This document shows positions 2,441-64,000 of a stretch of 64,000 nucleotides of DNA, piece by piece. The position numbers and the translations under genes were made by a program. Source of the stretch: Octopus vulgaris (Eukaryota); assembly GCA_951406725.2 (NCBI GenBank), contig OX597841.1:20522001-20586000 (forward strand), read 5' to 3'. Position 1 is the stretch's first letter, and every line of letters starts with the position of its first letter. The notes beneath the pieces are model-generated. The model saw nothing but the letters and a program-made list of their open reading frames with translations. It did no database searches and was not told where the DNA came from.

Positions 2441-2742
2441 ATCATCATCATCATCATCATCATCATCGTTTAACGTCCGTTTTCCGCGCTAGCACGGGTT
2501 GGACGGTTCGACCGGGGTCTGGGGAGCCAGGGGCTGCCCCAGGCTCCAGTCTGGTCTGGCAGTGTTTCTACAGCTGGATGCCCTTCCTAACGCCAACCAC
2601 TCCGCGAGTGTAGTGGGTGCTTTTTACGTGCCACCTGCACAGGAGCCAGAGGGGTCTGGCATCGGCCACGATCGGTTGGTGCTTTTTTTTTTTTTTTGTG
2701 CTACCGGCACAGAAGCCAGTCAAGGCGGTGCTGGCATCGGCC
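2441..2742 (-). mobile_element. 5'-truncated RTE LINE 3' tail with (GAT)n end
   Basis: Same tail (ggcgttaggaagggcatccag...ggacgttaaacgatgatg) follows an RTE ORF C-terminus at 52588-53368. Confidence 0.75.
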
Positions 2743-2756
2743 AATATATATATATA

Positions 2757-3128
2757 GGTGCAGGAGTGGCTGTGATTCCAGGTGAAGTCCCACTGTGTGG
2801 CACTTATAGCCTCAGGCCAACCAACGCCTTTTGAGTTGATTTGGCAGACAGAAACTGAAAGCCCATCGTATACATATGTGTGTGTGTGTATGAATTTGTG
2901 TGTTTGTGTTTATTCCCACATCATTGCTTGACAACTGATGCTGGTGTGTTTTAGTCCCCGTAACTTAGCAGTTCAGCAAAATAGAGCCATAGAATAAGTC
3001 CAGGGGTCTTATTCTATTCTATTCTTACAAAGAATAAGTCCAGGGGTCAATTTGTTTGACTAAAGGTGGTGCTCCAACATGGCCGCAGTCAAATGACTGG
3101 AACAAGTAAAAGAAAATAAAAGAATAAA
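2757..3128 (+). mobile_element. tRNA-derived SINE, family A (diverged)
   Basis: Matches the fuller copies at 27948, 31246, 39424 and 39846; ends aaatgactggaacaagtaaaag. Confidence 0.8.
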
Positions 3129-3230
3129 TATATATATATTGGTAAAAACGGTAAGAAAACAAAAGAGACCTCAATATTATGTAAATAGAGGAAATTTATC
3201 TGTAAATTAATATGTTACCATTATTCAATA

Positions 3231-3300
3231 GCCAAGATAAAACTAGGAGTTTCGGATGCCGAAGCGGAAATCCACAACACCATCTCTTCTGTTATCTGGC
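3231..3300 (-). ncRNA. Type I hammerhead motif, degenerate (CAGAAGA core)
   Basis: gccagataa CAGAAGA gatg...catc c GAAAC tccta GTT ttatcttggc. Confidence 0.6.
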
Positions 3301-4044
3301 CATCTGAAAAATGCTATGAAAAAATACCGTTATATAAAGGGAAATTACTGTGTTATAATTCCGTTACTTATATAAATTAAGGTTAAAAGTTCATAGTAAA
3401 CACGTAAGCATGGCTACTCATACACTCACATGTGCGCTCGTGCACCCACGTGAGTACGTATACGTCACTATGAAAACTTACACATCTTCACTCGCATTTT
3501 TCACCAATTGCATACGCATATATATATATACAAACTCATACACACACACGCATACCGTAATGGTTCATACATACGTCTATATACGCACAAGCACAAGAAA
3601 AAACACGGTTAAAAGTAACAATACAGAAAAACATAAAGAAGTATACAAAGCGTAAAACCACGTTCATATACGGACATGCCCTTATGCACGCATACGCACA
3701 CACGCCCATATATGTACATACCCGCACATGTTTATATACGCATACACAAAAAAATTATTAAACATATGCCCCCCAAAAAACGGAAAAAATTGTAAAAATA
3801 TTCAGTAAAAACGTATATATATATATGTATTCTTATGCCCGCACACATCTATATACATACACACCTGCCCACTCATACATATTCACACACGTGCAGAATG
3901 GAAGAGGGCAGAAAAAATTATTTTGTGTAAAAATATAAAAATATGTGAAAAAATAAAAGGTATAATGAGATAAAAAAAACTTTTTGGGACATAAAATAGA
4001 AAGCAAATTCTATCTGTATTCTTGGGGGACCAAAAACATAAAAA

Positions 4045-4632
4045 TGTTGTCACGTGTGGGCATGATCCGAAAAGTTCTATCCTTCAGTTTAGACATGTAG
4101 TAGGGTCTAAGCTGCTTTTCCAGATAAGCCATCTCTCCATGTCGCATAGACCGCACTTTCCGCTGCTGTTGGTGTAGGGCTTACATTTGGCCAAAATCTT
4201 CCAATGGATGTTGTAATTGACACCTTTATCTTTTAATGACCAAATATGATTGGATAATTTTGTCGCTTTTCTTTTGTTCCAGTGCCTAAAACTCAAGGTG
4301 TGGTTATTGAACCTGGCCTTGAAATTACCCTCTGTAAGGCCTACATATTTCTTCGTCGAAACGGTGTCTTTAGTGGTTATAGAGTCCACGGTAGCTTCAT
4401 AGATGATGGTCTCGGACATGCAAGCTCCATTTAGCGGGCACAATTTTTTATTCCTGCATGAACAGCTGTTTTCTTGTTGTGGTTTTTGTGTGTTATGTGT
4501 GATTATATTTTTAAAATTGGTAGTTGAACTAAAACTAATTTTTAAATTGAGTTTATTGAAGAGTTTCCTATGAATATGGTTAACTGGAAAATGTCTATCT
4601 ATCAATGTTAAGAAATATTTACCTATATTGAA
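4045..4632 (-). pseudogene. PLE GIY-YIG endonuclease (C-terminal fragment)
   Basis: CSCRNKKLCPLNGAC, IIYEATV...YVGLTEGNFKARFNNH, LSNHIW, CGLCDME; continues past the TGA at 4084 as CLN*RIELFGSCPH. Confidence 0.88.
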
Positions 4633-4840
4633 GGTACGCGTGTGTGTGTATGAGTTTGAATATATATGCATATACATTTGGCGAAAAATGCGAGTGAAGA
4701 TGTGTACGTTTTCATAGTGACGTATAGCCATGCTTACATGTTTACTATGAACTTTTAACCTCAATTTATATAAGTAGCGGAATTATAACACAGTAATTTC
4801 CCTTTGAATAACGGTCTTTTTTCATAGCGTTTTTCAGATG

Positions 4841-6412: not shown

Positions 6413-7011
6413 ATATTACATTTCTAAATATCTCAGAGAGATATAAGCAGTAGTGGTACAATAGAGTAGTTGTATACTGTCAACTTAATGTGGCAGTCCC
6501 ATGAAGGGAATCACACCACCGCTATTTAGCCCTAGGAAGCAGCAACGCTTCCTGTCAGCCTCGACACATTTCCTGTGTCCTTATGTTTACAAAGGGGAGA
6601 CAAGCACCTCCACCCAGCTAAGCCTGCCACCAGAGACATGTTTCAGAGTCTTTGCTCCTCCTCAGTCTGGAGTAGCATGACCTGCTAGTTGGGGATGCCT
6701 GTCTAGCCTTTGTAAACATATAAGAATTCTAGTGAAATAAATCCACTGATTACAAAAATAGAAATATTACATTTCTAAATATCTTAGAGATATATACGCA
6801 GTAGGAGTGCGATAGAGTAGTTGTATACTGTCAACTTAATGTGACAGTCCTATGAAGGGTGGAGGTGCTTGTCTCCCCCTTGTAAACATAAGGACACAGG
6901 AAATGTGTCAAGGCTGACAGGAAGCGTTTATGCTTCCTAGGGATAAATAGCAGTGGTGTGATTCCCTTTATGGGACTGTCACGTTAAGTTGACGGTATAC
7001 CAGTATACAAC

Positions 7012-7015
<4 letters not shown>
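6413..7015 (-). mobile_element. Retrozyme-like element, ~351-nt monomer plus inverted partial copy
   Basis: Direct repeat 6416 vs 6767 (period 351); inverted arm 6858-7015; one HHR; no ORF; (TA)n flanks. Confidence 0.8.
6630..6670 (-). ncRNA. Minimal type I hammerhead ribozyme
   Basis: ccaga CTGAGGA ggagcaaagactct GAAAC at GTC tctgg; canonical core, palindromic stem III ACATGT. Confidence 0.88.
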
Positions 7016-7863: not shown

Positions 7864-9039
7864 CTATCCGGTCAGTCGAAGTCGACTCCCGCTTACTCCA
7901 TGGATCAGTGTCCTCCAATCAGTTATATCCTGGGCCGCTTCTTTCAGACTGGCCAAGTCCATTCCGTCATCACTCTTGATGGTGTCAACCCAGCGGGTCC
8001 TTGGTCGGCCTCTTCCTCTCTTGCCACTGACCATTCCGAGCATGATGTCCTTCTCCAGGGATTTTCTCCTGATAATATGACCAAAATATGCCAATCTATG
8101 CTTAGTGATCCTAGCTTCTAGCGACATTTTTGGCCTGATCTGCTTAAGAACTTCTCCATTGGTGAGCCTCGCTGTCCATGGAATCCGTAAAAGTCTTCTC
8201 CAACACCAAAGCTCAAATGCATTAATTCTCTTCTGGTCAGCTTTCTTTAGTGTCCAGGTCTCGCATCCATATGTTGCTATTGGGAAGACAATTGCATTCA
8301 CCAAACTGCATTTGGTAGCGAGTCTGATGTCTCTATTCTTCCAGACCCTGCTCATGCTGACCATTGCCTCTCTGCCTAGTACTATCTGCCGTCTTATTTC
8401 TGGAGTGCAGTTACCATCTCGATTTATTTTGGAGCCAAGGAAGATGAAACCATCAACCACTTCGATCTCTTCATTATCGATCTTGATGCTGATGTTTGTT
8501 GTGGCTGCTGTTGACATGATCTTCGTTTTCTTAACATTGAGATACAGCCCGAATTTCTCACTCTCTTTCTTGACCAGCAGGACAAGATCCTCCAGATCCT
8601 TACCACTCTCCGCCAGCAGGATTGTATCATCTGCATAGCGAAGGTTATTAATATTTCTTCCTCCAATCCTCACTCCAATGCTGCTATCCTCCAGGCCTGC
8701 ATTCCTCATCACCTTTTCAGCGTACATGTTAAAAGCTGCTGGTGACAGGATGCAACCTTGCTGAGTGCCTTTTCCAATCTCAAACCAATCAGTGTCGCCA
8801 TATGGTGTCCGTACTGTAGCCTCTTGGTTTTGATAGAGTGATCTAATAAGGTGTAAAGGTGTTCCCATATCCTCCAGACATTTCCATAACTTGTCATGGT
8901 CAATGCTGTCAAAGGCTTTGGAGTAATCGATGAAACACATGTACAGCTTCTTTTGGTATTCTCTTGCCTTTTCCATAATCCACCGTAGGTTGGCGATGTG
9001 ATCGCAGGTGCCTCTTCCCTTTCTGAAACCAGCTTGCAC
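7864..9039 (-). pseudogene. RTE-clade LINE reverse transcriptase (5'-truncated; homology extends to ~9300)
   Basis: QAGFRKGRGT, FIDYSKAFD, QGCILSP, LRYADD, LNVKKTK, YGCETW, FELWCWRR, RGRPRTRW; (GATA)n tail. Confidence 0.95.
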
Positions 9040-9331
9040 CTCTGGCAGTTCTCTCTCAATAGTTGTGTTCAGGCGCTTCTGGATGATTTTAAGGAGAATT
9101 TCGCTTACATGGGGGATCAGGGTGATAGTACGGTAGTTTGTGCAGTCCTTGGTGTCTCTTTTCTTTGGTATTGGGATGAAAACTGACCTCTTCCATTCCC
9201 TTGGCCACTTACAGGTTCTCCATATTCGTTGGCAAAGCGATGTTAGTGTTTTTGTTGGTATTGGCTTGAGTAATTCTAGTGGAATACCATCAGTACCTGA
9301 AGCTTTTCGGTTATATATGTATATACGTATA

Positions 9332-10955: not shown

Positions 10956-12170
10956 AGATAGGGGTTGTAAATTCAACCCTCGATTGGATAACTTATATCC
11001 AATATACTGCTAGAGAAGTACCCAACAAAGCTAATACATAAATGTTAAAAATTGCGATGCAATTAATTCATTTACTGTATTAGGTGGGCAAAGGTAAAAT
11101 TATTTTTACCGTAAATTAATAATACAAAATGAGAAAATGGAGAAATATATCTAAATCATTCATCAACTATCAGATAATACCAAATCATATACTTTATTAA
11201 AACACTACACAATAGCAATGGGATTATACATTAATACAGTACAATAATTACAATCAATATGGTGAGATATAACTAAATAAATATAACAAGATATAAAATA
11301 CATTTACATTGTAGCTGACAGCTGTTTCGGCCATGAAGATAGGTATGTCTCATTTAACCTATTAGCCATATAATGCAGGTATAAATGAGACATTAACAAG
11401 AATATCTTACGGCCTCTTCGGAGATTCTAATGCAAACCCTAAAATAATTTACATATAAATATAAATATGAGTGCATACATACTCATATTCTTACATATAT
11501 ATACATATACACAATAATACAATATAAACAATATAGATCAATATACATCAACAAACACAATAATGTTCCATATTGAACTCCACAGCTCCTCAACCAACAT
11601 CAAGAAACCACAACAGACACACTCACACTCAATGCAGGCATATATATAAAACAGTTCAATATATTAAAATGTGTCACTTCACAAAAAGCCAATAAAGTTA
11701 ATACCACCACCATAGTACCATCCAAGGCAAGTGGATATCTGCATATATATGCAATCAGTTAAATTCCTCTGTTTGCATGGTATTAATTTTCACAGATGCA
11801 TTCGATTGGCCTATAGTTTTAAATTTGAATTACAATAGATATTTTACGGTTAGTTAGCTAGGAAACATACACACGCGCACGTACATCCACAAAACGTGCG
11901 CACATACAGACATAGTCATATGTTTACACACCCACACACACCCACACACACACACACATACACAACCAAATCATAAATAAATAACATAAGAGGTACTATC
12001 CATCTATACACTAAGTGTTTACAAACAGATCCACTCACATATGTCCATAAATCCGTAAGTGCAATCATACATATAATTATACCTAGATGCAGAGTGTAAT
12101 TTGTCATAAGGTACATAATTCATGTGACACCGTATTTTTCGTAAACAAAACATTTCAGAACTATATAAAA
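10950..12170 (-). mobile_element. PLE-type 3' region with HHR (family also at 23330 and 37348)
   Basis: Shared terminus aaatgagataggggttg(t/a)aaattcaaccc abutting (TA)n; right boundary approximate. Confidence 0.65.
11312..11425 (-). ncRNA. Type I hammerhead motif (CCGAAGA core)
   Basis: ct CCGAAGA ggcc...ggcc GAAAC agct GTC ag; homologous to the canonical copy at 38688. Confidence 0.7.
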
Positions 12171-12174
12171 ATAT

Positions 12175-12622
12175 TAATAATTCTAAGTGTCTCTAAAGGA
12201 GACTTCAGCAGCAGTACTGGATATTAATAGTTATCGCCAGGCTAATATGGCAGTCCAGAAATATAGGATGAATGCTGCCATTGATTAGCTCCAAGAGACC
12301 ATCACCTTTAGCTAGCTATGTTACACATGAACCTGTGTCCATTATATGTATTCCACTGAATTTAGGTAAATAATCCTTCGAACAGACGGTCAGTAGTGAC
12401 GCCTGCTAGGTTTGGCTGCTCTGCATTGATAAATACCCTGAAACTAGTCTTCAGATTCCTGACCAGCAAGGGGAAGTGGCTGACCTCCCCTGTTTGAGGG
12501 TTATAATGCACACAGGTTAGTGTATCACATAGCTAGCTAGATGCGCTGGCCTCTTGGATCTAATCAACGGCACCATTCGTCCTATATTTCTGGACTGCCA
12601 TATTAGATTGGCGATAACTATA
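12175..12622. mobile_element. Diverged member of the retrozyme-like family, fold-back
   Basis: 12228-12346 inverted to 12502-12620; same hairpin series; only the 3' half of the HHR remains (GAAAC ta GTC ttcaga at 12440-12455). A further fragment lies at ~22845-22925. Confidence 0.65.
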
Positions 12623-22832: not shown

Positions 22833-22939
22833 AATAGAAATATTAAAATTACTAAGTCTCTCTAAAAGAGATCACGGCAGCGTTCCTGGAAAATAATAGT
22901 TATGGCCATACTAATATGGCATTCTTATAAATATATATT

Positions 22940-41347: not shown

Positions 41348-43235
41348 TCATATGTTGTGGTGTGTGTTAGTGCTCCATTCTAGCTTTCTATTCAGGCTAG
41401 GTTTATTTTCTATTATGTGTGTAGCTTCTGTAAGTTGTCTAATTGTTGCATCTGTTCTATGTGTGGACAATATTTTAATTTCTATGTTATTGATTGACCC
41501 CCTGTGTTCCTGTTCGGCATGTTGGTACAGAATCGATGAGCTTTTACCTCCCTTGAGTTGTCTCCAATGCTCATTTACCCGCTCTCCTATGCTTCTTGCC
41601 GTTTCCCCTACGTATGTCGTCTTGTTACTGCATCGTCCCTCTATACATCTTATACTATAGACTACATTTCTGGCTTTACAGTTTGTTTGTGGGCTAAATC
41701 TACATACAGTACAGTACTTATCCGTACAGGGGGTTCTACTAAAAGGATAGGTTCTACCAATTATAGATTTGATAGGGTTACCTGGCTTTTCAACAACCTT
41801 AATTTTTGGCTTAAGTTTGTCTAGGGTCCTTCTAAAGCGGTATGCCAGTTCACCTCCAGGGGTGGTGTCAACGAACATGACACTCTGGTATTTATGGCTA
41901 TCATACCAAGAGTTGGCCTTCCCTATTTTCTTTTTTGTCCTTTCTATAGTGTTCCATGACTTGTTCCTATAGAGTGGGCAAATCCCATTCCTATCATTAC
42001 ATAATATATTATCAAATTTCTTCATGGCTCCTTTGTATACTCTGATCCTTTCTTTATGGCTGTAACCTGAGAACTGCATGCGGTGAATGAAATACTGTAT
42101 GTGTCTCTTTAACTCTGTGGGCTCGCACATGCGTGACACATTTCTCATTATTCTGATGAGGTCTGCCATCAAAATATTGAATTTGGCATTGTCCGCAATG
42201 GCTGAGTTCCGGTGGATCAAGTATGCTGAGGCCATAAGTTTGGCATAGTATGAATGAAGGATTTAGGTTTTATTTTTCACAATTTCTAGCCAGAGTTCAG
42301 TGTCTAGTACTGGTAGTCTATGGTTGGGGTGTTTAGTGGGGTAGTCTATTGTGACCTTAATATTCTGGTGGATGGAGTTAGCTATTTGCTGGATGCTCTC
42401 CATAGTATTAGTTTCTATTACTATATCAACATTACTCTCTTGTGGGGGTGCCTTTACCACTATGTTGATATCATCAACATAGCGAGTGTACATGTTTACG
42501 AGTATGGAGTTCTGTGTTAGGCGTTCTTTAAGCCTTCTGTCCCACCATAACATGAAAAGGTTGGCCACATCACCAGCGATACTAACGCCGATGGCTGCCC
42601 CCTCGTCCTGGGCATATATTTTATTATTAAACTTAAACGTGTGGCCTTTTAGGGTAACTCTTATACTAGCTCCTAGTGCATGTGCGATCATTTTCTTTAT
42701 CTGATGGACATTTGTGGGGCTCCGTATGGCTCTGGTCCATCCGCGCCATCTTTCTATATGTATCTTCCTAGCCATAGAAGTAATTGTGGGCGGTCTACCT
42801 CTTAAACATCTACTGGGGCAGAAACTACTAAGATTATGTTTATCTAAGTATTCATTATTACATGTCAGTCTAAGTAGGAGGCCCAGTTCTTCTGTGTTGA
42901 CATTACGGAACTCCACCTGGCTCTCATTGATCATCTCCACGCACTTCTCCACCGCAAAATCTACGTCGATCGATGGGTATAGGGATACCACATCCATGCT
43001 ACCCACCATACATCCTGTCAGGTCACAAGTGTTGTTACAGTCATCGATCCTGCTGAGATCTTCTGTGCTGTCACAAACATCAGGTGACATCCGGATTATA
43101 GGGCATATGATCATTGAGAGGAAGTAGGAGATTCTGTAATTGCTAGCGATATTCGCTCCACAGACTGGTCTTGTTGGTGGTCCTGCTATAGGGTCAGTAA
43201 TTACTTTATGGTCCTTGCGAAGTCGATACAGTGCC
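41348..43235 (-). pseudogene. PLE RT / GIY-YIG ORF with one in-frame TAA at 42263
   Basis: RKDHK, TRPVCGA, SMDVVSLYPSI, GAAIG, YTRYVDD, LPVLD, then *ILHSYYAKLMAS in the same frame, FVDTTPGGELA, CTDKYCTVC, VVYSIRC, YVGETARS, PSLNRK. Confidence 0.93.
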
Positions 43236-43742
43236 AGGATATCATTGTAAAGCCAGAAATGTAGTCTATAGTATAAGATGTATAGAGGGACGATGCAGTA
43301 ACAAGACAACGACATACATAGGGGAAACGGCAAGATGCATAGGAGAGCGGGTAAATGAGCATTGGAGACAACTCAAGGAAGGTAAAAGCTCATCGATTCT
43401 GTACCAACACGCCAAACAGGAACACGGGGTATCAATCAATAATATAGAAATTAAAATATTATCCACACATAGATCAGATGCAACAATTAGACAAGCATAA
43501 TAATAAGTGGATGTAAACACATGAACAAAATAAGAATAAACAAAAACAACAAAAACAAAATACAAATTACATGAATGTATATAAACAGAAGATACAAATA
43601 TTACAAGCATCCCCCCCACACACACTAAATAAACATAGACGCACATAGAGATATAAGCATGCGCAAATGAAGACATACAATAGAAATACAAAATGGCTGA
43701 TGGTTAGTAAGGAGAGACACAAGTAAGTGAGAAGAAAACAAA

Positions 43743-56195: not shown

Positions 56196-56197
56196 CA

Positions 56198-56720
56198 GGT
56201 ATATTTGCCATCTCAAAATGGCTAACCACTAAGGGTGGGTGTTACTGTAGCTTGTAGCCCCAGGAGAGCATCTCCTCCAGCTGGCTATAGGCACACTTTC
56301 TGTGCCCTATCTGTATTTTCGAAGGGAGGTCATCCTTCCCTTGTCAACCTAAGTGATACGCACGGACTGCAGTTTCTGGGTATTGACCCGTCATCAGCGT
56401 ATGACAATCACTGGTTTTCAATGCAAATATTTATATCCTTTTTCCAGTAACTTTTCGTCGCTGATCCTGAAAAAGTGTAGACAAGCAATAATAAATCTAT
56501 GAACGTATCACTTAGGTTGACGAGGGAAGGGTGACCTCCCTTTGCAAATACCGTTAGGGCACAGAAAGTGTGCCTAAAGCCAGCTGGAGACGATGCTCTC
56601 CTGGGGCTACAAGCTACAGTAACACCCACCCTTAGTGGTTAGCCATTTTGAGATGGCAAATATACCTCACATTGTCGTGCAGTTACTGTTTATACCTCGT
56701 TCAGAGATTTATTATTGCTT
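56198..56720 (-). mobile_element. Retrozyme-like element, reconstructed monomer ~336 nt, with inverted arm
   Basis: 56198-56360 inverted to 56503-56667; 56483-56504 inverted to 56698-56719 closes the permuted unit; one HHR. Confidence 0.8.
56359..56403 (-). ncRNA. Minimal type I hammerhead ribozyme
   Basis: catacg CTGATGA cgggtcaataccca GAAAC tgca GTC cgtgcg; stem III ACTGCAGT. Confidence 0.87.
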
Positions 56721-56774
56721 ATATATGTATATATATATATGTATATAATTAGGAAGTTAATTGTTATGGTTGGT

Positions 56775-57233
56775 CATAGAGTGACCATTGGGTTTGCACC
56801 TATAGGCATTTAGCAGTATAGGGGACTTGTCAGGCTCAAATGGCCAAAGGCACATAACCTCTCTACAACTGGAGTTATGTGCCTTCAGTCATTTAAGTCT
56901 GACGAGACACCTGTACTGCTAAGTGCTTTATAGATATGAAACCAGCAGTCAGACACCTGTACTGCTAAGTGCTTTATAGATATGAAACCAGCAGTCAGAC
57001 ACCTGTACTGCTAAGTGCTTTATAGATATGAAACCAGCAGTCAGACACCTGTACTGCTAAGTGCTTTATAGATATGAAACCAGCAGTCGGACACCTGTAC
57101 TGCTAAGTGCTTTATAGATATGAAACCAGCAGTCAGACACCTGTACTGCTAAGTGCTTTATAGATATGAAACCAGCAGTCGGACACCTGTACTGCTAAGT
57201 GCCTATAGGTGCAAACCCAATGGTCACTCTATG
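56775..57233. mobile_element. Fold-back MITE with a 46-bp tandem expansion
   Basis: TIR catagagtgaccattgggtttgcacctataggc; units start at 56906, 56952, 56998, 57044, 57090, 57136 and 57182. Confidence 0.85.
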
Positions 57234-58742
57234 CTTCTTTAGAATGTGTTTCTTTTTGGATATATGAACTACTGACTCTGTGTGTGTGTGTGTGTGTGTG
57301 TATTCAACCATGAAAATCCTGTGGACATTATGGATAAGGCAACATCCAGTTGTCCATGTGTGAACACTGGTCTCGGTTGTGTTCATAAAGTAATCTTCTC
57401 AAATGTTTGCCCTGAATGAAGAAAGAGTGACTCTGCAAATAAACTTTTATTCCAAGTTTATAATAATATTTTATTACCTTTTTGCACTTATATTAAGAAA
57501 TGTAAAGGGGAATCTATTAAATTTCATTCACTTTTAAAAAAGGTAAAATCGGACAGAACTTATGGGATGACCTGATATATGGTGATAAGGATACAGGAAG
57601 AGAAGAAAAGGGAGAAGAGACAACAGCAGAAAGGCAGAGAGAGAGAGAGAGCATGAAGAAGAAATACAACCCATTTGGTCAATAATTTAGAATAAGAAGG
57701 AAGAAGAGAAAACGATTAATAAAGGGGAGATGAATCAAGTGTAAAGATAAAAGGGAAAAAAATGTGAAAGAGAAACCGGGTGAGAAACTCTGTACACAGT
57801 CAGAGACATAGGGAAGGAGAAGGCCAATGCGTGAGAAGCCATGAAACCTTTTCACACTCGCACATAGACGCACGCAGTAACTCTTTTTTTATTTCACCCT
57901 TTTTCTCCCTATCACATATATATTCTGCCAAGTACGAACACATGCGCACGTACATCCCTATACACACTCAAAGACCGTAAACACGCGTCTGCTCATACGC
58001 AACAAAAGAGATAAACACACAATACAAGGTTCACAAAGGCAACATGTGCAAAAGATTGGAATCTCTTCGTAGTTGTTTGATCAGAATAGCAATTATCTTA
58101 TTCTATGATCTTGAAAGCGACATTCGATAACGATTTAATATCGTTGCGGCTTGAAGGTTGTTGGTCGATCTGTGGTAGTGACTGGTTGAACTGATGAATG
58201 AAAACAGGTTTCTTGGACTGTGTTTAGAACTAACTGAACAACACCTGCGAACATTTAACAGAAGATTTTATTATCGTACTTAAAGACAAACTGTTACAAA
58301 TAACAGCAATAATTACATACTGAGAGAGATACTGCTTGGAGTCTACAGCAAGCTGCTATTGCATACGGCAACATGTACTTTGCCCAACATAATGTATAAT
58401 ATTCGTGGTGACAGAGGTTCCAGTCATCGGCGAAGGTAAAGAATACGCACACCCGGTGTTTAGGGTTACGGTTAGGGTTTTTGTTACGCAAAAAAGCAGG
58501 TGGTGTGCTTATTTTTTACCTCTGCCCCATCTATCTTAGCTACTTCTTGGGTCGATTTGTTGGTAAAAATGTGTGCTAAACAGTTTTTCTAAGGAACTGG
58601 AAGTCAAATCCTATTTCTGTTCACTCCCAACCGGTAAAAAGAACTTTCACCTAATTAAATTACTTAAATTATTTTGTCAGCATATTCTTCATTTCCTTTT
58701 TTATATATCACAACTCATGTTCCACATCTCCTTTTTTAAATA

Positions 58743-58774
<32 letters not shown>

Positions 58775-58808
58775 CTATTTTATTAAAGCTCCACGAACTG
58801 TCAGTCAG

Positions 58809-58857
58809 AGAGTTGTGATAATGCGCAATTGCCTGATGAACGATCGCATGAAACTCT
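58809..58857 (+). ncRNA. Hammerhead-like motif (type III fold possible)
   Basis: aga GTT gtgat...attgc CTGATGA acgatcgcat GAAAC tct; weak stem II. Confidence 0.45.
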
Positions 58858-59136
58858 AACTAAAAGTTTGTGAAGTTTTTCTGAGCTTTAATAAAGTATT
58901 ATTTTACTCTGCATTTGGTATTCAGGTAGCATCTTTGCCACTTTGTTTTGCATGCACACACTCACACACACACACACACCTATATGAGACAAGCCACTTG
59001 AAGTTTTTCTCTCTCATATCCACTCACTTGCCCAAAGCATCAAGCAGAGAGATTGGATTCAAGACCACATGATTCAGAAGCAAGTTTCTCACGACACTGC
59101 AATGCTAGTGTCTGGGTGCATGTGTATCTATATTGT

Positions 59137-59301
59137 TGTGGCGAAAGTCATTGACACCCCTGGCGAATTGGAAGAATGGACTAGCCAAACTCTTATAAAG
59201 AGTAACGTATTGGTTGAGACAGGGGTCGGTAGGAGTCGTTGAGAGGGCGTTCAAGAGTCCCACGAAGTACGATGTATGAACACGTTGATTTTACCGCTAC
59301 A
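59137..59301. mobile_element. Probable solo LTR
   Basis: TG...CA ends (tgtggcg / cgctaca) with 4-bp flanking duplication ttgt. Confidence 0.55.
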
Positions 59302-59329
59302 TTGTTAAATTATATATCCAGGATATAAA

Positions 59330-60700
59330 AGTGGTGATGAGATATTCGAAGCTTTTTATTATCAAGAATTTTCAGAAGTTCCCCGTTCAATACTTATATA
59401 AAATGTTTAAATTTAGTTAAAAAATATGATGAAGATTTCATCACCTATGCTACGATTGTTAACAGAGAGTGTGAAAATTTCAAATTAAATGAATTAGGGT
59501 GGGGGCAATAAAAAAATATGCCTTTGCCAACAAACATTACAATGTAGCAAGCATTTTGGGAGCTTGCAAATTACTACCAGGTATGCATACCGAATATGCA
59601 CGATTTAAGAGAACCCCTGAATAACTTGTTAAAAAAAGACGTTAAGTAGAACTGGTCAGTCAAATGCCAAAAAGTATTTGAAGAGATTAAAAATGTCTTA
59701 ACTTCGAAATTGACGTTATCATATTTTGGCCTGACTTTAGAAATAGTAGTGGCAACAGATGCTAGTGAAAGTGGTATTGGAGCTGTGGTTTTACACAAAT
59801 GGTAGCCTGAAAGCAGCAGCTCCTGTTTCGTGTTCATTATTGCCGGCTGAGAAAAGTTACAGTCAAATAGAAAAAGAGGCATTAAATTTATATATGGAAG
59901 AGGGTTCTGTCTGCAGACAGACCACCACCCATTATTGTCGTCGATCTATGGATAAAAAAAGGGTATCCTCACACATACAACCAACAGATTGTAGTGCTGG
60001 GGAACAATCCTACTGAATTACAATATCAAAATGGAATATTTGCCATCGAAAATATTGGGACATGCAGATGATTTGACAAGTTTAATACCAAAATACAGTG
60101 AACCCCTAGAAGACGCAGCGATAGTGGCGTTAAAAGCCTAAAATGAAATAAAAATATTGTGCATAAATTGCCTGTGACACTGGAGAAAATAAAAATTAAG
60201 GCAGAGACGGATGAGTTTATCATAAAAATGAAAAATATAGCGAGATCAGAAGCAAATAAAAAATACGTGTAGCTCGACGTAACAAAGTCTCAAATTTGTG
60301 TTCGATATGTGATAATGTGCTTATGTATGCACAGAGGGTCATAATGTCTACCTCACTACAAGGTCGGATGTTAAAGGAATTCCACACTGGACATCCAGGA
60401 ATTTCTAGAATGAAGTCACTTATGAGGAGTTATGTTTACTGGCCAAAAATGGATTTGGATATTGAGAAGTTGGTAAATCCTGCAGAGATTGAGCTCTTAC
60501 AGAGAAATCAGCACCAATAAAATTTCAACCTTGGCCCAAGACCAATATTCCAAGGTCCAGACTACACATAGACTTCACAGGACCGTTAAACCGATCGTGT
60601 TATCTAATAGTGGCAAATAACTTTACTAAATCGCCAAAAATGTGTAAATGTAGAAAACCAACATCCACAGTAAAAGTGAAATTTCTACACAAACTTTTTC
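59330..60700 (+). pseudogene. Decayed Gypsy pol (RT tail, RNase H, integrase)
   Basis: PLNNLLKKD, VATDASESGIGAV, YSQIEKEAL, TDH, HTGHPGISRMKSLMRSYVYWP, RLHIDFTGP. Confidence 0.9.
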
Positions 60701-61726
60701 TAGGTATGGTGTTAAGGTTAGTATTTGGTGTTAGGGTTACGGCTAAGCTTAGTATTTGGCAGGTATGGTGTTATTGTAAATATTTACCAAATTCTTATCC
60801 AGTCATAATTTTGTTCATCAGTAACCAACCTTTGTGTGAATGGGACAGGACTAGCCAGAAACTTTGTTTTACAAAAGTACTTCTTACATAACTTGCTGTC
60901 AATTCATTGGATTAATCCCAACAAAATACTTCTTCCGAAGTAATAAAAACGTTTTAGAAAAATTTGAGGGGAAATGTTTTCCGAAGCTGCGGGGAAAGTG
61001 TTTCGGAAAATTCACACGATCCGATTTTTTCCCTCGTAACTTTCAGGAAAAAGGATATCTTTTAATGAATTTTTGCAGAAACATCTTTGAAATATTTGAA
61101 AATGGGGGTGGATAGTGAAATTTCCGAGGGTTTCACCCCACCCCACCCCTGAACCCAAAAAAGGGTTTTGTAGCATATTAGGAGGTCACCGGAATTCAGT
61201 CAATGAAAAAAATTTCCAATGATTCCTGGATATGGGGGGGGTCCGAATCCCCCCACCACACACACAACAAAAATAAAGGGGTCAGAGTACTTGATTCCAT
61301 GCAAAAAATCTGAGTTTTCTATTTTTTCTTAGTGAAAATCGTGCAGAGGGTGAAATTTCTGAGGCTTCCACCTCACCCCACCCCATTTTCCGGACTCTAA
61401 AAAGGGTTTTGTAGCATACTAGGAAGTCACTGAAATTCACTCAATGAAAAAAAAAATTTCCAATGATTCTGGGTGTGGGGGGGCTCTTTTTCTGAACAAA
61501 AATAAGGAGTTTGTAGTATATTAGGAGGTCAGGGTACTTGATTCCACGCAAAAAATCTGAGATTTTTTTTTTCTTAGTGAAAATCGTGCAGGTGAAAGGA
61601 TCAAAATTTACCCTTTCATCTTGGTAATTATTTGATGGCAACGATTCGAGAGGAAGGTATAACTTGGCTGCCTCTATAAAGAACTTGTGCAACAGACTTT
61701 CTTCAGGTTGAGAAATTATAAATCAA

Positions 61727-62275
61727 AATTAGAAATATTGAATTTCTAAATGTCTCAGAGCGATATAGTGGTCGTATACTGTCAACTCAATGTGACAGTC
61801 CCGTAAAGGAATTATACTACCGCCATTTAGCCCTGGGAAACATCGACGTTTCCTGTTGGCTTTGACACATTTTCTGTGTCCTTATATTTGCAAAGGGGAG
61901 ACAATCACCCTCGCCAGCTGGGACTAAGCACCTGAAGACATATGTTTCTGAGTCTATTGCTCGTCGTCAGTTCAGGGTTGTCAGTCTCGCTCGCTGAGAT
62001 GACTGCAACCTCTTCGCAAATATATCATATTTTCAGTAAAATGTATTTACTGATCACCGAAATTAGAAATATTGAATTTCTAAATGTCTCAGAAACATAT
62101 GTCTTCAGGTGCTTAGTCCCAGCTGGCGAGGGTGATTGTCTCCCCTTTGCAAATATAAGGACACAGAAAATGTGTCAAAGCCAACAGGAGACATCGATGT
62201 TTCCCAGGGCTAAATGGCAGTGGTGTGATTCCCTTACGGGACTGTCACATTGAGTTGACAGTATACGACCACTAT
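61727..62275 (-). mobile_element. Retrozyme-like element, 334-nt monomer plus inverted arm, 14-bp TSD
   Basis: Direct repeat 61729/62063; inverted arm 62089-62275; TSD aaattataaatcaa at 61713-61726 and 62276-62289. Confidence 0.87.
61931..61976 (-). ncRNA. Minimal type I hammerhead ribozyme
   Basis: cctgaa CTGACGA cgagcaatagactca GAAAC atat GTC ttcagg; 6-bp stem I; stem III ACATATGT. Confidence 0.9.
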
Positions 62276-64000
62276 AAATTATAAATCAATATCTTGCAAG
62301 ATATTGTTGCAGATATTTTGATTGAATTCCTGGCTTTTGGATTGATTCTTTTATGTCTCTCCAAAGTCTTTCAATGTTTCTATGTGTGCTATCTTCAAAA
62401 TTGTTAGAGCAAGGTATTTCCCCATTATTGTTTCCATGTGGGCATATCACTATGTTTGGTAATACTCCATATGAATGAAGGAACTCAACTGACTTTTGAT
62501 CATTACAGTGAAAAGTCCTGATGCATTCATAGTAATCAAAATTACAATTTTCAAAAGTATTGAAATTCTCCATTCTCAAGCATTAGTTTCCAAATGTGAT
62601 GATACCCAAAATGAAATGAAAGATACATTTCAAGTAAACCTCTCCATCGCCTTTTTCAACGACATAGATTATAATGATAAATAAAAAAACAAACCGATAG
62701 TGTAAATTTTCCAACAATCTTCTCCCCACCCTTTCATAAAACATTTTCCCCCCACCCTTTCATAAAACATTTTCCCCACAAATTTCTTTATAATTGTAAT
62801 CTATGCTGTTTAAGGTGTTTCTCTAAAATTTCATTGCAGTGTCGCCAATTTAGCCTATTTTATGCTAGATCCAGCATTTTTCTCAGCATTTAGCAGAACA
62901 TTTTTGAATCTAGCATTTAGCAGGAAAAATAGCAGCTTTTACATTTTATTTAGCAATTTTTTTCTGATCAGGACATTTCCACAATAGTTACCCTTTTTTT
63001 CTTCTTTTTCCTCCTTTGCTACTTTTGTTAACGTATCTTACACCCAAATTTGAGCACTATTGGCTATTGTTGAATTTTTCTTTCACTTCCATGAAACTTC
63101 AAATGAATGTTTATCAAAAGGAAGTTTGTGAAGTTATGAACTTTTCCAGCCTCCCCTCCCACTGCTTCGATTCAGAGTGGTTCTGGTGGGGTGGGGGGAA
63201 GATAAATCATGTCAGTAACTGAACTCCCTACACAATAATGTAAATATGTTGCAAAGAATGAAAGCATGGAAATTTGTCCTAACACCACTTTATTCTGTAG
63301 TGATGAGTTTTTATCAGGACGGGTTGACTGATTTACTTTCAGTTTGACCGTTTTAAAACAGGCCTGTGTTTTTTCATGCTTGTTTTGGATCATATATCTT
63401 GTGTAGAAGTATGGGGGTGGCGGGGCCTTGCCCTTTATATTTCTACTTACTTTTTTTTCAAGTATTGTAGTTATATTTGTGGTTTTACCAATAGATATTA
63501 AATGTAAGATTGGAAGCAGAATATGATATTCCCAGGTTTATATCAGAACACAGTTTTAAGATTTCTGCAGATTTTACTTTTCCATTTCTAAGTTGGCCAC
63601 CCTGCATCCTGAATCAGTATTCTTCACCTCAAGAATTTGTTAGCAGCAAACATAAGAATTGTTGATGACGAATGAAAGAATTGTTAGCAGCAAACTGATA
63701 AGTTGTGTTTTCAGTTTTATATTTTTATTAATCATTCAATTTATTTTCTTGCTTCCCACTACATTATAATGAGAAAAGGAAAATGTTGTACTAGCAAAAA
63801 TTCCGAAAGGAATGGCTTAAGATGCCAGTGTTTACTAAGTGATTGTGTGAAGTACCGAGTGACCAATCTAAAGCACATTGCAGATATTGTAGATGTAATA
63901 TGTTGGCAAAATATTCTCTTTTAGTAAACCACTGTGAAGCATAGAAACAACTCCACAGCAAATGATTCCTCTTACCAATTTTATTAAAACCAAAAATGAT

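Follow-up and report, generated by a model that had tools for sequence, protein, structure and literature searches.

We analysed a 64,000-nucleotide (nt) stretch of Octopus vulgaris DNA (assembly GCA_951406725.2, contig OX597841.1, positions 20,522,001 to 20,586,000; hereafter, the window), in which an initial annotation had listed four hairpins, H1 to H4, recurring downstream of a hammerhead ribozyme in four repeat arms. These arms belong to type I hammerhead retrozymes of 353-361 nt, and the hairpins make up the 3' half of a larger predicted fold, conserved and covarying, that takes in the entire ~355-nt retrozyme RNA. The octopus retrozymes studied here are likely non-autonomous Penelope-like elements (PLEs). 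In most copies, the 3' end lies at one of two fixed positions, inside the fold or directly behind it; thus, the fold is likely to be the handle by which a PLE enzyme is borrowed, and on balance we interpret it as a platform on which a borrowed PLE reverse transcriptase (RT) docks and primes internally. The features on which we build were seen directly in the sequence: repeat families, a hammerhead motif, covarying helices, fixed 3' ends, the use of one arm per fixed site, and target duplications.

Genome searches with three of the window arms as queries returned 2517-3577 first-look candidates each. A sample of 100 10-kb stretches, chosen evenly and including 12 that adjoin the window, contained the domain at 7 loci, i.e., about 7 loci per Mb, which scales to ~20,000 loci genome-wide, with a wide error. 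Unit lengths derived from pile-ups, circularly permuted, were 354 nt for family D (which includes the A-type copies), 353 nt for family C and 361 nt for family B, and divergent matches yielded three further families, F (353 nt), G (360 nt) and H (354 nt). Over the first 235 nt, the six family consensuses share 54-64% pairwise identity, the G-H pair excepted; the 73% identity of that pair is unreliable because the H consensus used in the comparison was contaminated by G (it was rebuilt later). Fragments exceeding one unit (13/46 in D, 20/45 in C, 5/43 in B) indicate partial tandems. The monomer of 353-361 nt is too short to encode an RT and, by its anatomy as read from the genome, the octopus element is a metazoan retrozyme lacking long terminal repeats (a non-LTR retrozyme). 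Contigs of four runs presumed to be RNA cover the family C unit; they carry no strand, ends or circles, and their higher depth over the 3' half of the unit fits 5'-truncated genomic copies and was not used as evidence.

In each of the six consensuses, a single type I hammerhead motif was recognised per unit. Its stem I has 6 bp, loop II contains AATA, a 3x1 internal loop is present, and the canonical contact motif of loops 1 and 2 is seen; stem III is minimal, family G excepted. They resemble the metazoan type I hammerheads described by Cervera and de la Pena (2014, PMC4209133) in the 6-bp stem I, the ~4-bp stem II, the short stem III with a palindromic loop, and the conserved letters of loops 1 and 2. 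The octopus motifs differ from the type described there in having U3-A8 in the core (family B), C4 (family H), a longer stem III (family G) and the cut triplet ATA (family F).

When folded alone, each of the six consensuses adopted a common plan, with an extended stem I, a long-range helix and a multiloop that holds, in this order, H1, H2, a junction closed by helix P3 and containing H3 and H4, tail hairpins, and H5. Helix P3, which covaries and joins H3 and H4 into one junction, had been overlooked in the initial annotation, and the separate four-hairpin module proposed there dissolves into the whole unit, since all of the ~355 nt fold alike across families. The monomer folding z values, compared to dinucleotide shuffles, were -7.5 (D), -3.6 (C), -7.5 (B), -6.3 (F) and -5.0 (G), and in these five families the hammerhead strand was more stably folded than its complement.

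Covariation was assessed in three alignments, whose pair counts lay above all shuffles and all slid controls. The first was a hand-registered table of the six consensuses: over all tabulated helices, pairing holds in 261 of 276 cells, and two-sided changes occur in 30 of 46 pairs; the corresponding figures are 167/174 and 18/29 for H1, H2a, H2b, P3 and H4, and in stem I of the hammerhead all 36 cells are paired with differing letters. None of 20000 permutations gave pairing figures as high. H3 has no clear register and was omitted from this table, in which the registers of H5 and H6 are imperfect in F, G and H. In a MAFFT alignment of 13 natural copies (D/A, C, B and F), 92.5% of cells are paired, with two-sided changes in 14 of 27 pairs, compared to 24-51% of cells and 1-4 pairs in slid-partner controls; further pair types in this alignment did not exceed shuffles (426/500). 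From the same 13 copies, RNAalifold predicted H2, P3, H4 and two pairs of H3 unaided. A covariance model built without G and H finds held-out copies of both families, and an alignment of 59 matches fitted to the model, which leans to the model, has two-sided changes in 23 of 27 pairs. It should be noted that the permutation, shuffle and slid controls ignore phylogeny; because shuffles take no account of relatedness, their results are not probabilities. The covariation is real, within a known class of elements, and the central claim of the initial annotation, a conserved RNA structure in which pairing is kept by two-sided changes across families, is upheld.

Several unpaired letters of the fold are conserved as well. 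The GATG tip of H2 is shared, and the 4x3 internal loop of H2 (AGCT/TGG) is found in five of the six families. Among matches filtered at 80% identity and not fully de-duplicated, the H4 loop has 8 nt in 309/313 fragments, with T at position 3 in 307/309 and at position 4 in 303/309. The tail hairpin H6 (TCTC/GAGA) is conserved in sequence, and the H1 loop varies between families: the AG(A/G)AA loop that had been considered typical of H1 is not kept in B, F, G and H. Such conserved loop letters are as sites of protein or tertiary contact would show. The earlier proposal that the H4 loop pairs with CTTAG was rejected, CTTAG being limited to families A/D and C, where it lies paired inside the predicted extension of hammerhead stem I, and absent from B, F, G and H. 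A systematic search for partners of the H4 loop revealed no site of at least 5 bp common to all six families. By eye, a pairing of 3-6 bp could form in all six consensuses between loop II of the hammerhead (AATA) and the H4 loop (Y-R-T-T); we do not claim this pairing, which shows no compensatory change and competes with the usual contact between loops 1 and 2. If true, it could switch the ribozyme off while the RNA serves as a template. A tRNA-like cloverleaf or a tRNA-derived short interspersed element was also rejected (ARAGORN reported 0 genes in 8/8 loci, and the H4 loop has 8 nt, compared to the 7-nt anticodon loop). The statement that the domain is no known ribozyme or tRNA is thus borne out for tRNA; for Rfam there was no match at the gathering score, and over the domain nothing rose above chance, the matches being microsatellite look-alikes or chance ones; this negative is weak because the scans also missed the hammerhead.

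The 3' ends of genomic fragments pile up ~172 and ~229 nt past the predicted cut, and the 5' ends are scattered. Among 240 3' ends from six families, counted with 12 duplicate loci left out, 118 fall at site 1, 92 at site 2 and 30 elsewhere. Site 1 was defined as 5-24 nt past H4, inside the P3 junction, and site 2 as 0-32 nt past H6; these windows cover ~15% of the unit and were set on families D, C and B. The families outside this definition use the same sites (33/37 ends in F, 27/32 in G and 25/32 in H). Site 1 lies 10-17 nt past H4, and in all six families it is found inside the P3 junction at a kept distance from H4, with differing letters; site 2 lies about 57 nt further (45-53 nt in C). 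Of the roles considered in the initial annotation for the hairpins, i.e., RT recognition, transcription or ligation, it is RT recognition that receives positional support from these fixed ends.

The ends are also used in a regular manner in inverted insertions. We found 61 inverted clusters, 45 with both outer ends at a fixed site and 16 with one end elsewhere; 43 of the 45 use one site of each kind (p ~2e-11 under independence), two rows of this count (L016) being copies of one event. A duplicated flank of at least 11 nt, counted with a few bases inside the element and one mismatch, is present in 17 of 29 non-microsatellite junction pairs and in 1.9% of mismatched controls; 14 of 43 pairs were set aside as microsatellite. 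As many as 104 of the 210 fixed-site ends run into an AT or AC microsatellite within 12 nt. The insertions carry the marks of PLE-type integration: a fixed 3' end with an optional tail, variable 5' truncation, inverted arms, target duplication and a bias toward microsatellites. It should also be noted that retrozymes often lie in (AT)n beside another retrozyme family or a PLE end (L267, L064, L121, L125, L126, L332, L341), which is consistent with a common target preference.

Autonomous PLEs that could supply the enzyme are found in the same genome. One is a young family encoding a 1312-aa protein with a long Asn-rich insert, with an intact relative, for example, at L357:1278-5213 (-) and a broken copy in the window at 41348-43372 (-). 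Its assignment to PLEs comes from a BLASTP match to a 781-aa RT/GIY-YIG protein (E 2e-10); Pfam has no family for it. The 3' untranslated region (UTR) contains a minimal hammerhead variant with C at core position 9, and there are two fixed 3' ends ~56 nt apart, one of each being used in 16/16 inverted pairs (beside these, one more pair has an end elsewhere and one is a direct tandem). When one sequence was folded, its 3' end formed a helix with site 1 in the enclosed loop, a loose analogy to the retrozyme. The 781-aa RT/GIY-YIG protein represents another young PLE family with many open frames and ends ~33 nt apart (L121-L124; G000 C16, C9, C17). This family also has an upstream frame of 333-378 aa, a U3-A8 hammerhead, and repeated CCAAT/CRE-like boxes with a TATA-like box in the 3' UTR. 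The spacing in the 1312-aa family (~56 nt) matches that of the retrozyme (~57 nt), compared to ~33 nt in the 781-aa family; thus, judged by site spacing only, the 1312-aa family or a relative is the best candidate partner. Family B, C and D copies beside PLE ends (L121, L124, L125, L126) were considered as instances of a PLE-borne fold and proved to be nested retrozyme insertions, and a motif from loose ends of transcripts, considered as an autonomous partner, proved to be a C subfamily.

We suggest the following scheme for the proposed platform. A tandem retrozyme copy would be transcribed, and the hammerhead would cut out a monomer, which may be circularised; monomer circularisation has been reported in print for mussel, coral and axolotl retrozymes. 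The PLE protein, probably as a dimer, would bind the H2/P3/H4 region and nick both strands of AT-rich DNA ~10-15 bp apart. Of two complementary DNAs (cDNAs), one would be primed inside the P3 junction (site 1) and the second ~57 nt further (site 2), and the joining of these truncated cDNAs would produce a head-to-head inverted insertion. Several observations weigh against this interpretation. The fold spans the whole monomer, including the stem I extension, the long-range helix, H5 and H6, which docking alone leaves unexplained, and fixed 3' ends mark the start points of copying, not the helix that is bound. H3 cannot be brought into a clean register in all families (82.7% paired in the 13-copy alignment), and the small hairpin containing site 1, a weak one with a pair probability of 0.35-0.86, is not homologous from one family to the next. 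The number of independent lineages is below six because G and H, which have several changes in common, look related. Neither the 781-aa nor the 1312-aa family matches the fold model at its 3' ends, for which reason the PLE partner is only a candidate; there was likewise no BLAST or model match in the 3' ends of the fetched GIY-YIG loci, mainly from these two young families, and no shared coding flank among the matches listed for 170 loci.

The main rival to a docking platform is that the fold was selected for life as an RNA circle, through compaction, nuclease resistance, folding of the hammerhead, or presentation of the ends to a host ligase, with the insertion ends set by local unpaired stretches rich in A, C or U. 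We consider this a real, if lesser, possibility: the whole monomer fold is conserved and not just its 3' half, with stem I fully paired; RtcB circularises retrozyme monomers far better than self-ligation does, according to the text accessible for PMC7229834; and about half of the fixed ends run into AT/AC microsatellites. However, general stability should not need the branch order, a GATG tip, an internal loop of 4x3 or an H4 loop of 8 nt, all of which are retained, the distance between site 1 and H4 is kept in six families despite differing letters, and the one-arm-per-site rule requires an organised complex. It is rather improbable that the conserved loops bind a host protein, for export, localisation, or shielding from silencing or ADAR, while PLE recognition resides elsewhere, e.g., in the tail hairpins between the two sites. 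Young autonomous PLEs that lack the fold integrate alike, H6 in the tail is conserved in sequence, and the tail of Drosophila Penelope is needed for endonuclease recognition (as summarised in PMC11167929), all of which would agree with recognition outside the junction; nevertheless, the P3 junction contains site 1 in each of the families, and no result here points to a host factor.

Conservation could also act at the DNA level, as an internal promoter or a hairpin signal for transcribing the next tandem unit, and newt satellite transcripts are indeed made by RNA polymerase II (review PMC6765202, seen in part). We regard this as quite unlikely, given that letters vary while pairing persists and that in D, C, B, F and G the fold of the hammerhead strand is more stable than that of its complement; the excess of G-U over A-C cells on the hammerhead strand (135 vs 80) points in the same direction, weakly, as it comes from the model-fitted alignment. 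Even less credit is given to a second ribozyme, a ligase or nuclease acting together with the hammerhead, for which the multi-helix junction, the conserved loop letters and the empty Rfam result (from scans that also missed the hammerhead) might be invoked. We found no evidence of a second catalytic RNA in the domain: the junction has few invariant unpaired letters and no supported pseudoknot, the unit already carries a canonical hammerhead, including the contact motif between loops 1 and 2, and known retrozymes are ligated mainly by RtcB in the account available from PMC7229834.

The octopus retrozymes have parallels among described elements. The metazoan non-LTR retrozymes (Cervera and de la Pena 2020, PMC7229834; Li, Clavereau and Pollet 2026, bioRxiv 10.64898/2026.07.22.740005) share with the octopus element a ~350-nt non-coding unit (350-390 bp in mussel), one type I hammerhead, partial tandems, thousands of dispersed copies and a proposed mobilisation by PLEs. 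The accessible text of these papers presents single-sequence folds or sequence trees only, with neither a fold that covaries beyond the hammerhead nor fixed 3' ends placed on one, whereas a covarying fold and mapped 3' ends are given here for the octopus element. We found no description of this fold in the literature searched, which did not extend to subscription journals, Repbase/Dfam entries or supplements (including those of the 2026 preprint and PMC7229834). For Xenopus retrozymes, 21 PLE matches were reported in the accessible part of the preprint (10.64898/2026.07.22.740005), whereas we found no sequence link between octopus retrozymes and an autonomous pseudo-long terminal repeat (pLTR), nor a terminal sequence or fold common to the retrozymes and an autonomous PLE, mainly the two young families being examined.

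A biochemical parallel is Poseidon PAc of Anolis (Frangieh et al. 2024, PMC11167929, as far as its text was available). The purified PLE protein, a predicted dimer, starts reverse transcription at two internal sites downstream of the hammerhead, the first in the A/C-rich loop of a stem-loop, and the interval between them equals the genomic tail; the AT-rich targets are cut on both strands. The region in PAc is the start of an open reading frame and the tail has 30-40 nt, whereas in the octopus retrozyme the region is non-coding, site 1 lies ~172 nt past the cut and the tail has ~57 nt; in addition, covariation between families backs the octopus structure. Inverted PLE insertions (Arkhipova et al. 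2013, PMC3846280; Craig et al. 2021, PMC8557442, both consulted in part) show the same head-to-head arms, with the tail optional on one arm, and the same microsatellite bias; they have target duplications of 8-10 bp, and a pLTR is sufficient for mobilisation in trans. Compared to those in print, the arm asymmetry in octopus is near-strict (43/45, and 16/16 in the autonomous family) and is placed on an RNA fold.

In the window, each plus-strand arm is half of a head-to-head inverted insertion, and complete hammerheads are located on minus-strand arms at 6665, 56397 and 61970. The left arm of the family C insertion (56197..56505, -) carries the hammerhead and the fold and ends at site 1 (56197); its type I core, CTGATGA / stem II / GAAAC-TGCA-GTC, occupies 56365..56397 (-), with a predicted cut after 56365. 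The right arm (56504..56725, +), 5'-truncated just 3' of the hammerhead, ends at site 2 (56725). On this plus strand are H1 (56557..56575), H2 (56578..56608, with outer AGCC/GGCT, the 4x3 internal loop, an inner helix and the GATG tip) and the P3 junction (56616..56689, its helix formed by 56616-56623 with 56682-56689), which contains H3 (56626-56638), H4 (56641-56658, 8-nt loop Y-R-T-T) and the site-1 segment (~56668-56675). About seven 46-bp tandem units between inverted ends (56770-57235) directly adjoin this insertion. The family D insertion (61726-62276) is flanked as a whole by a ~13-bp target duplication. Its left arm (61726..62065, -; hammerhead core 61970-61964, predicted cut after 61937) ends at site 2 and, in this copy, has lost the 3' strand of P3 by deletion; its right arm (62090..62276, +) includes H1 (62160-62176), H2 (62179-62211), H3 (62230-62241) and H4 (62243-62260) and ends at site 1.

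An A-type insertion of the same family has a left arm at 6420..6850 (-), with the hammerhead CTGAGGA at 6665, a 3' end at site 2 and an extra short internal fragment inside, and a right arm at 6858..7012 (+) that carries H1-H4 and ends at site 1, running into (AT)n. The 6.9-kb and 62.2-kb arms are 83-84% identical and constitute one family; thus, the four arms of the initial annotation represent three lineages. In family B, the left arm (12165..12346, -) ends at site 2, and the right arm (12347..12621, +), which ends at site 1, has a broken hammerhead (motif 12426-12449 (+), TTGATAA core 12426-12432, the 5' side of stem II deleted), decayed H1 and H2, and an intact H4. Hairpins H1-H4 as originally listed are accordingly found in three arms (6893-6993, 56558-56658, 62160-62260) and not in the fourth (12505-12620), where only H4 fits the listed motifs (GCCA at 12597, loop TATTAGAT, TGGC at 12609), H1 and H2 are mutated, and H3 reads GTCC/GGAC, off those motifs. 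All four H4 loops had been given exactly; the AGCC/GGCT pair around H2, seen in the family C right arm, has no clean version in the 6893-6993 arm. A short B-type 3' fragment from H4 to site 2 (22833..22935, -) was absent from the first list.

Other features of the window include a hammerhead-like motif at 11315-11420 (-), with a CCGAAGA core, a very long stem II insert and GAAAC-AGCT-GTC, which is part of an unrelated repeat devoid of the fold. The fold is also lacking in at least five other repeat families with type I hammerheads elsewhere in the genome (L223, L130, L098, L174, L176, L184, L154, L099, L198, L094), and several of these repeats end 50-110 nt after the cut, in (AT)n. The frame at 4084-4782 (-) is C-terminal and GIY-YIG-like, belongs to yet another PLE type and precedes a long 3' UTR; similar ends recur near 3300 and 4790. 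An RT frame of ~480 aa from a long interspersed nuclear element, which we take to be RTE-like, is found at 7864-9310 (-).

The element class described here is already known; what the analysis yields is a candidate signal of ~135 nt with natural compensatory variants and two predicted start sites at near-base resolution. The counted insertion rule fits a model with two active sites, and a young, intact candidate enzyme is available in the same genome. PLE reverse transcriptases are the closest mobile relatives of telomerase. We tentatively propose, as a bolder possibility, that the H2/P3/H4 junction is a dedicated RNA element that would place a dimeric, telomerase-related PLE RT on two start sites at once; it would then correspond, as a natural element defined by covariation, to the domains of telomerase RNA that bind proteins, and would serve as a minimal, portable signal by which PLEs could insert any RNA. 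The finding bears on how PLE reverse transcriptases pick their RNA and how retrozymes, which lack proteins of their own, get copied.

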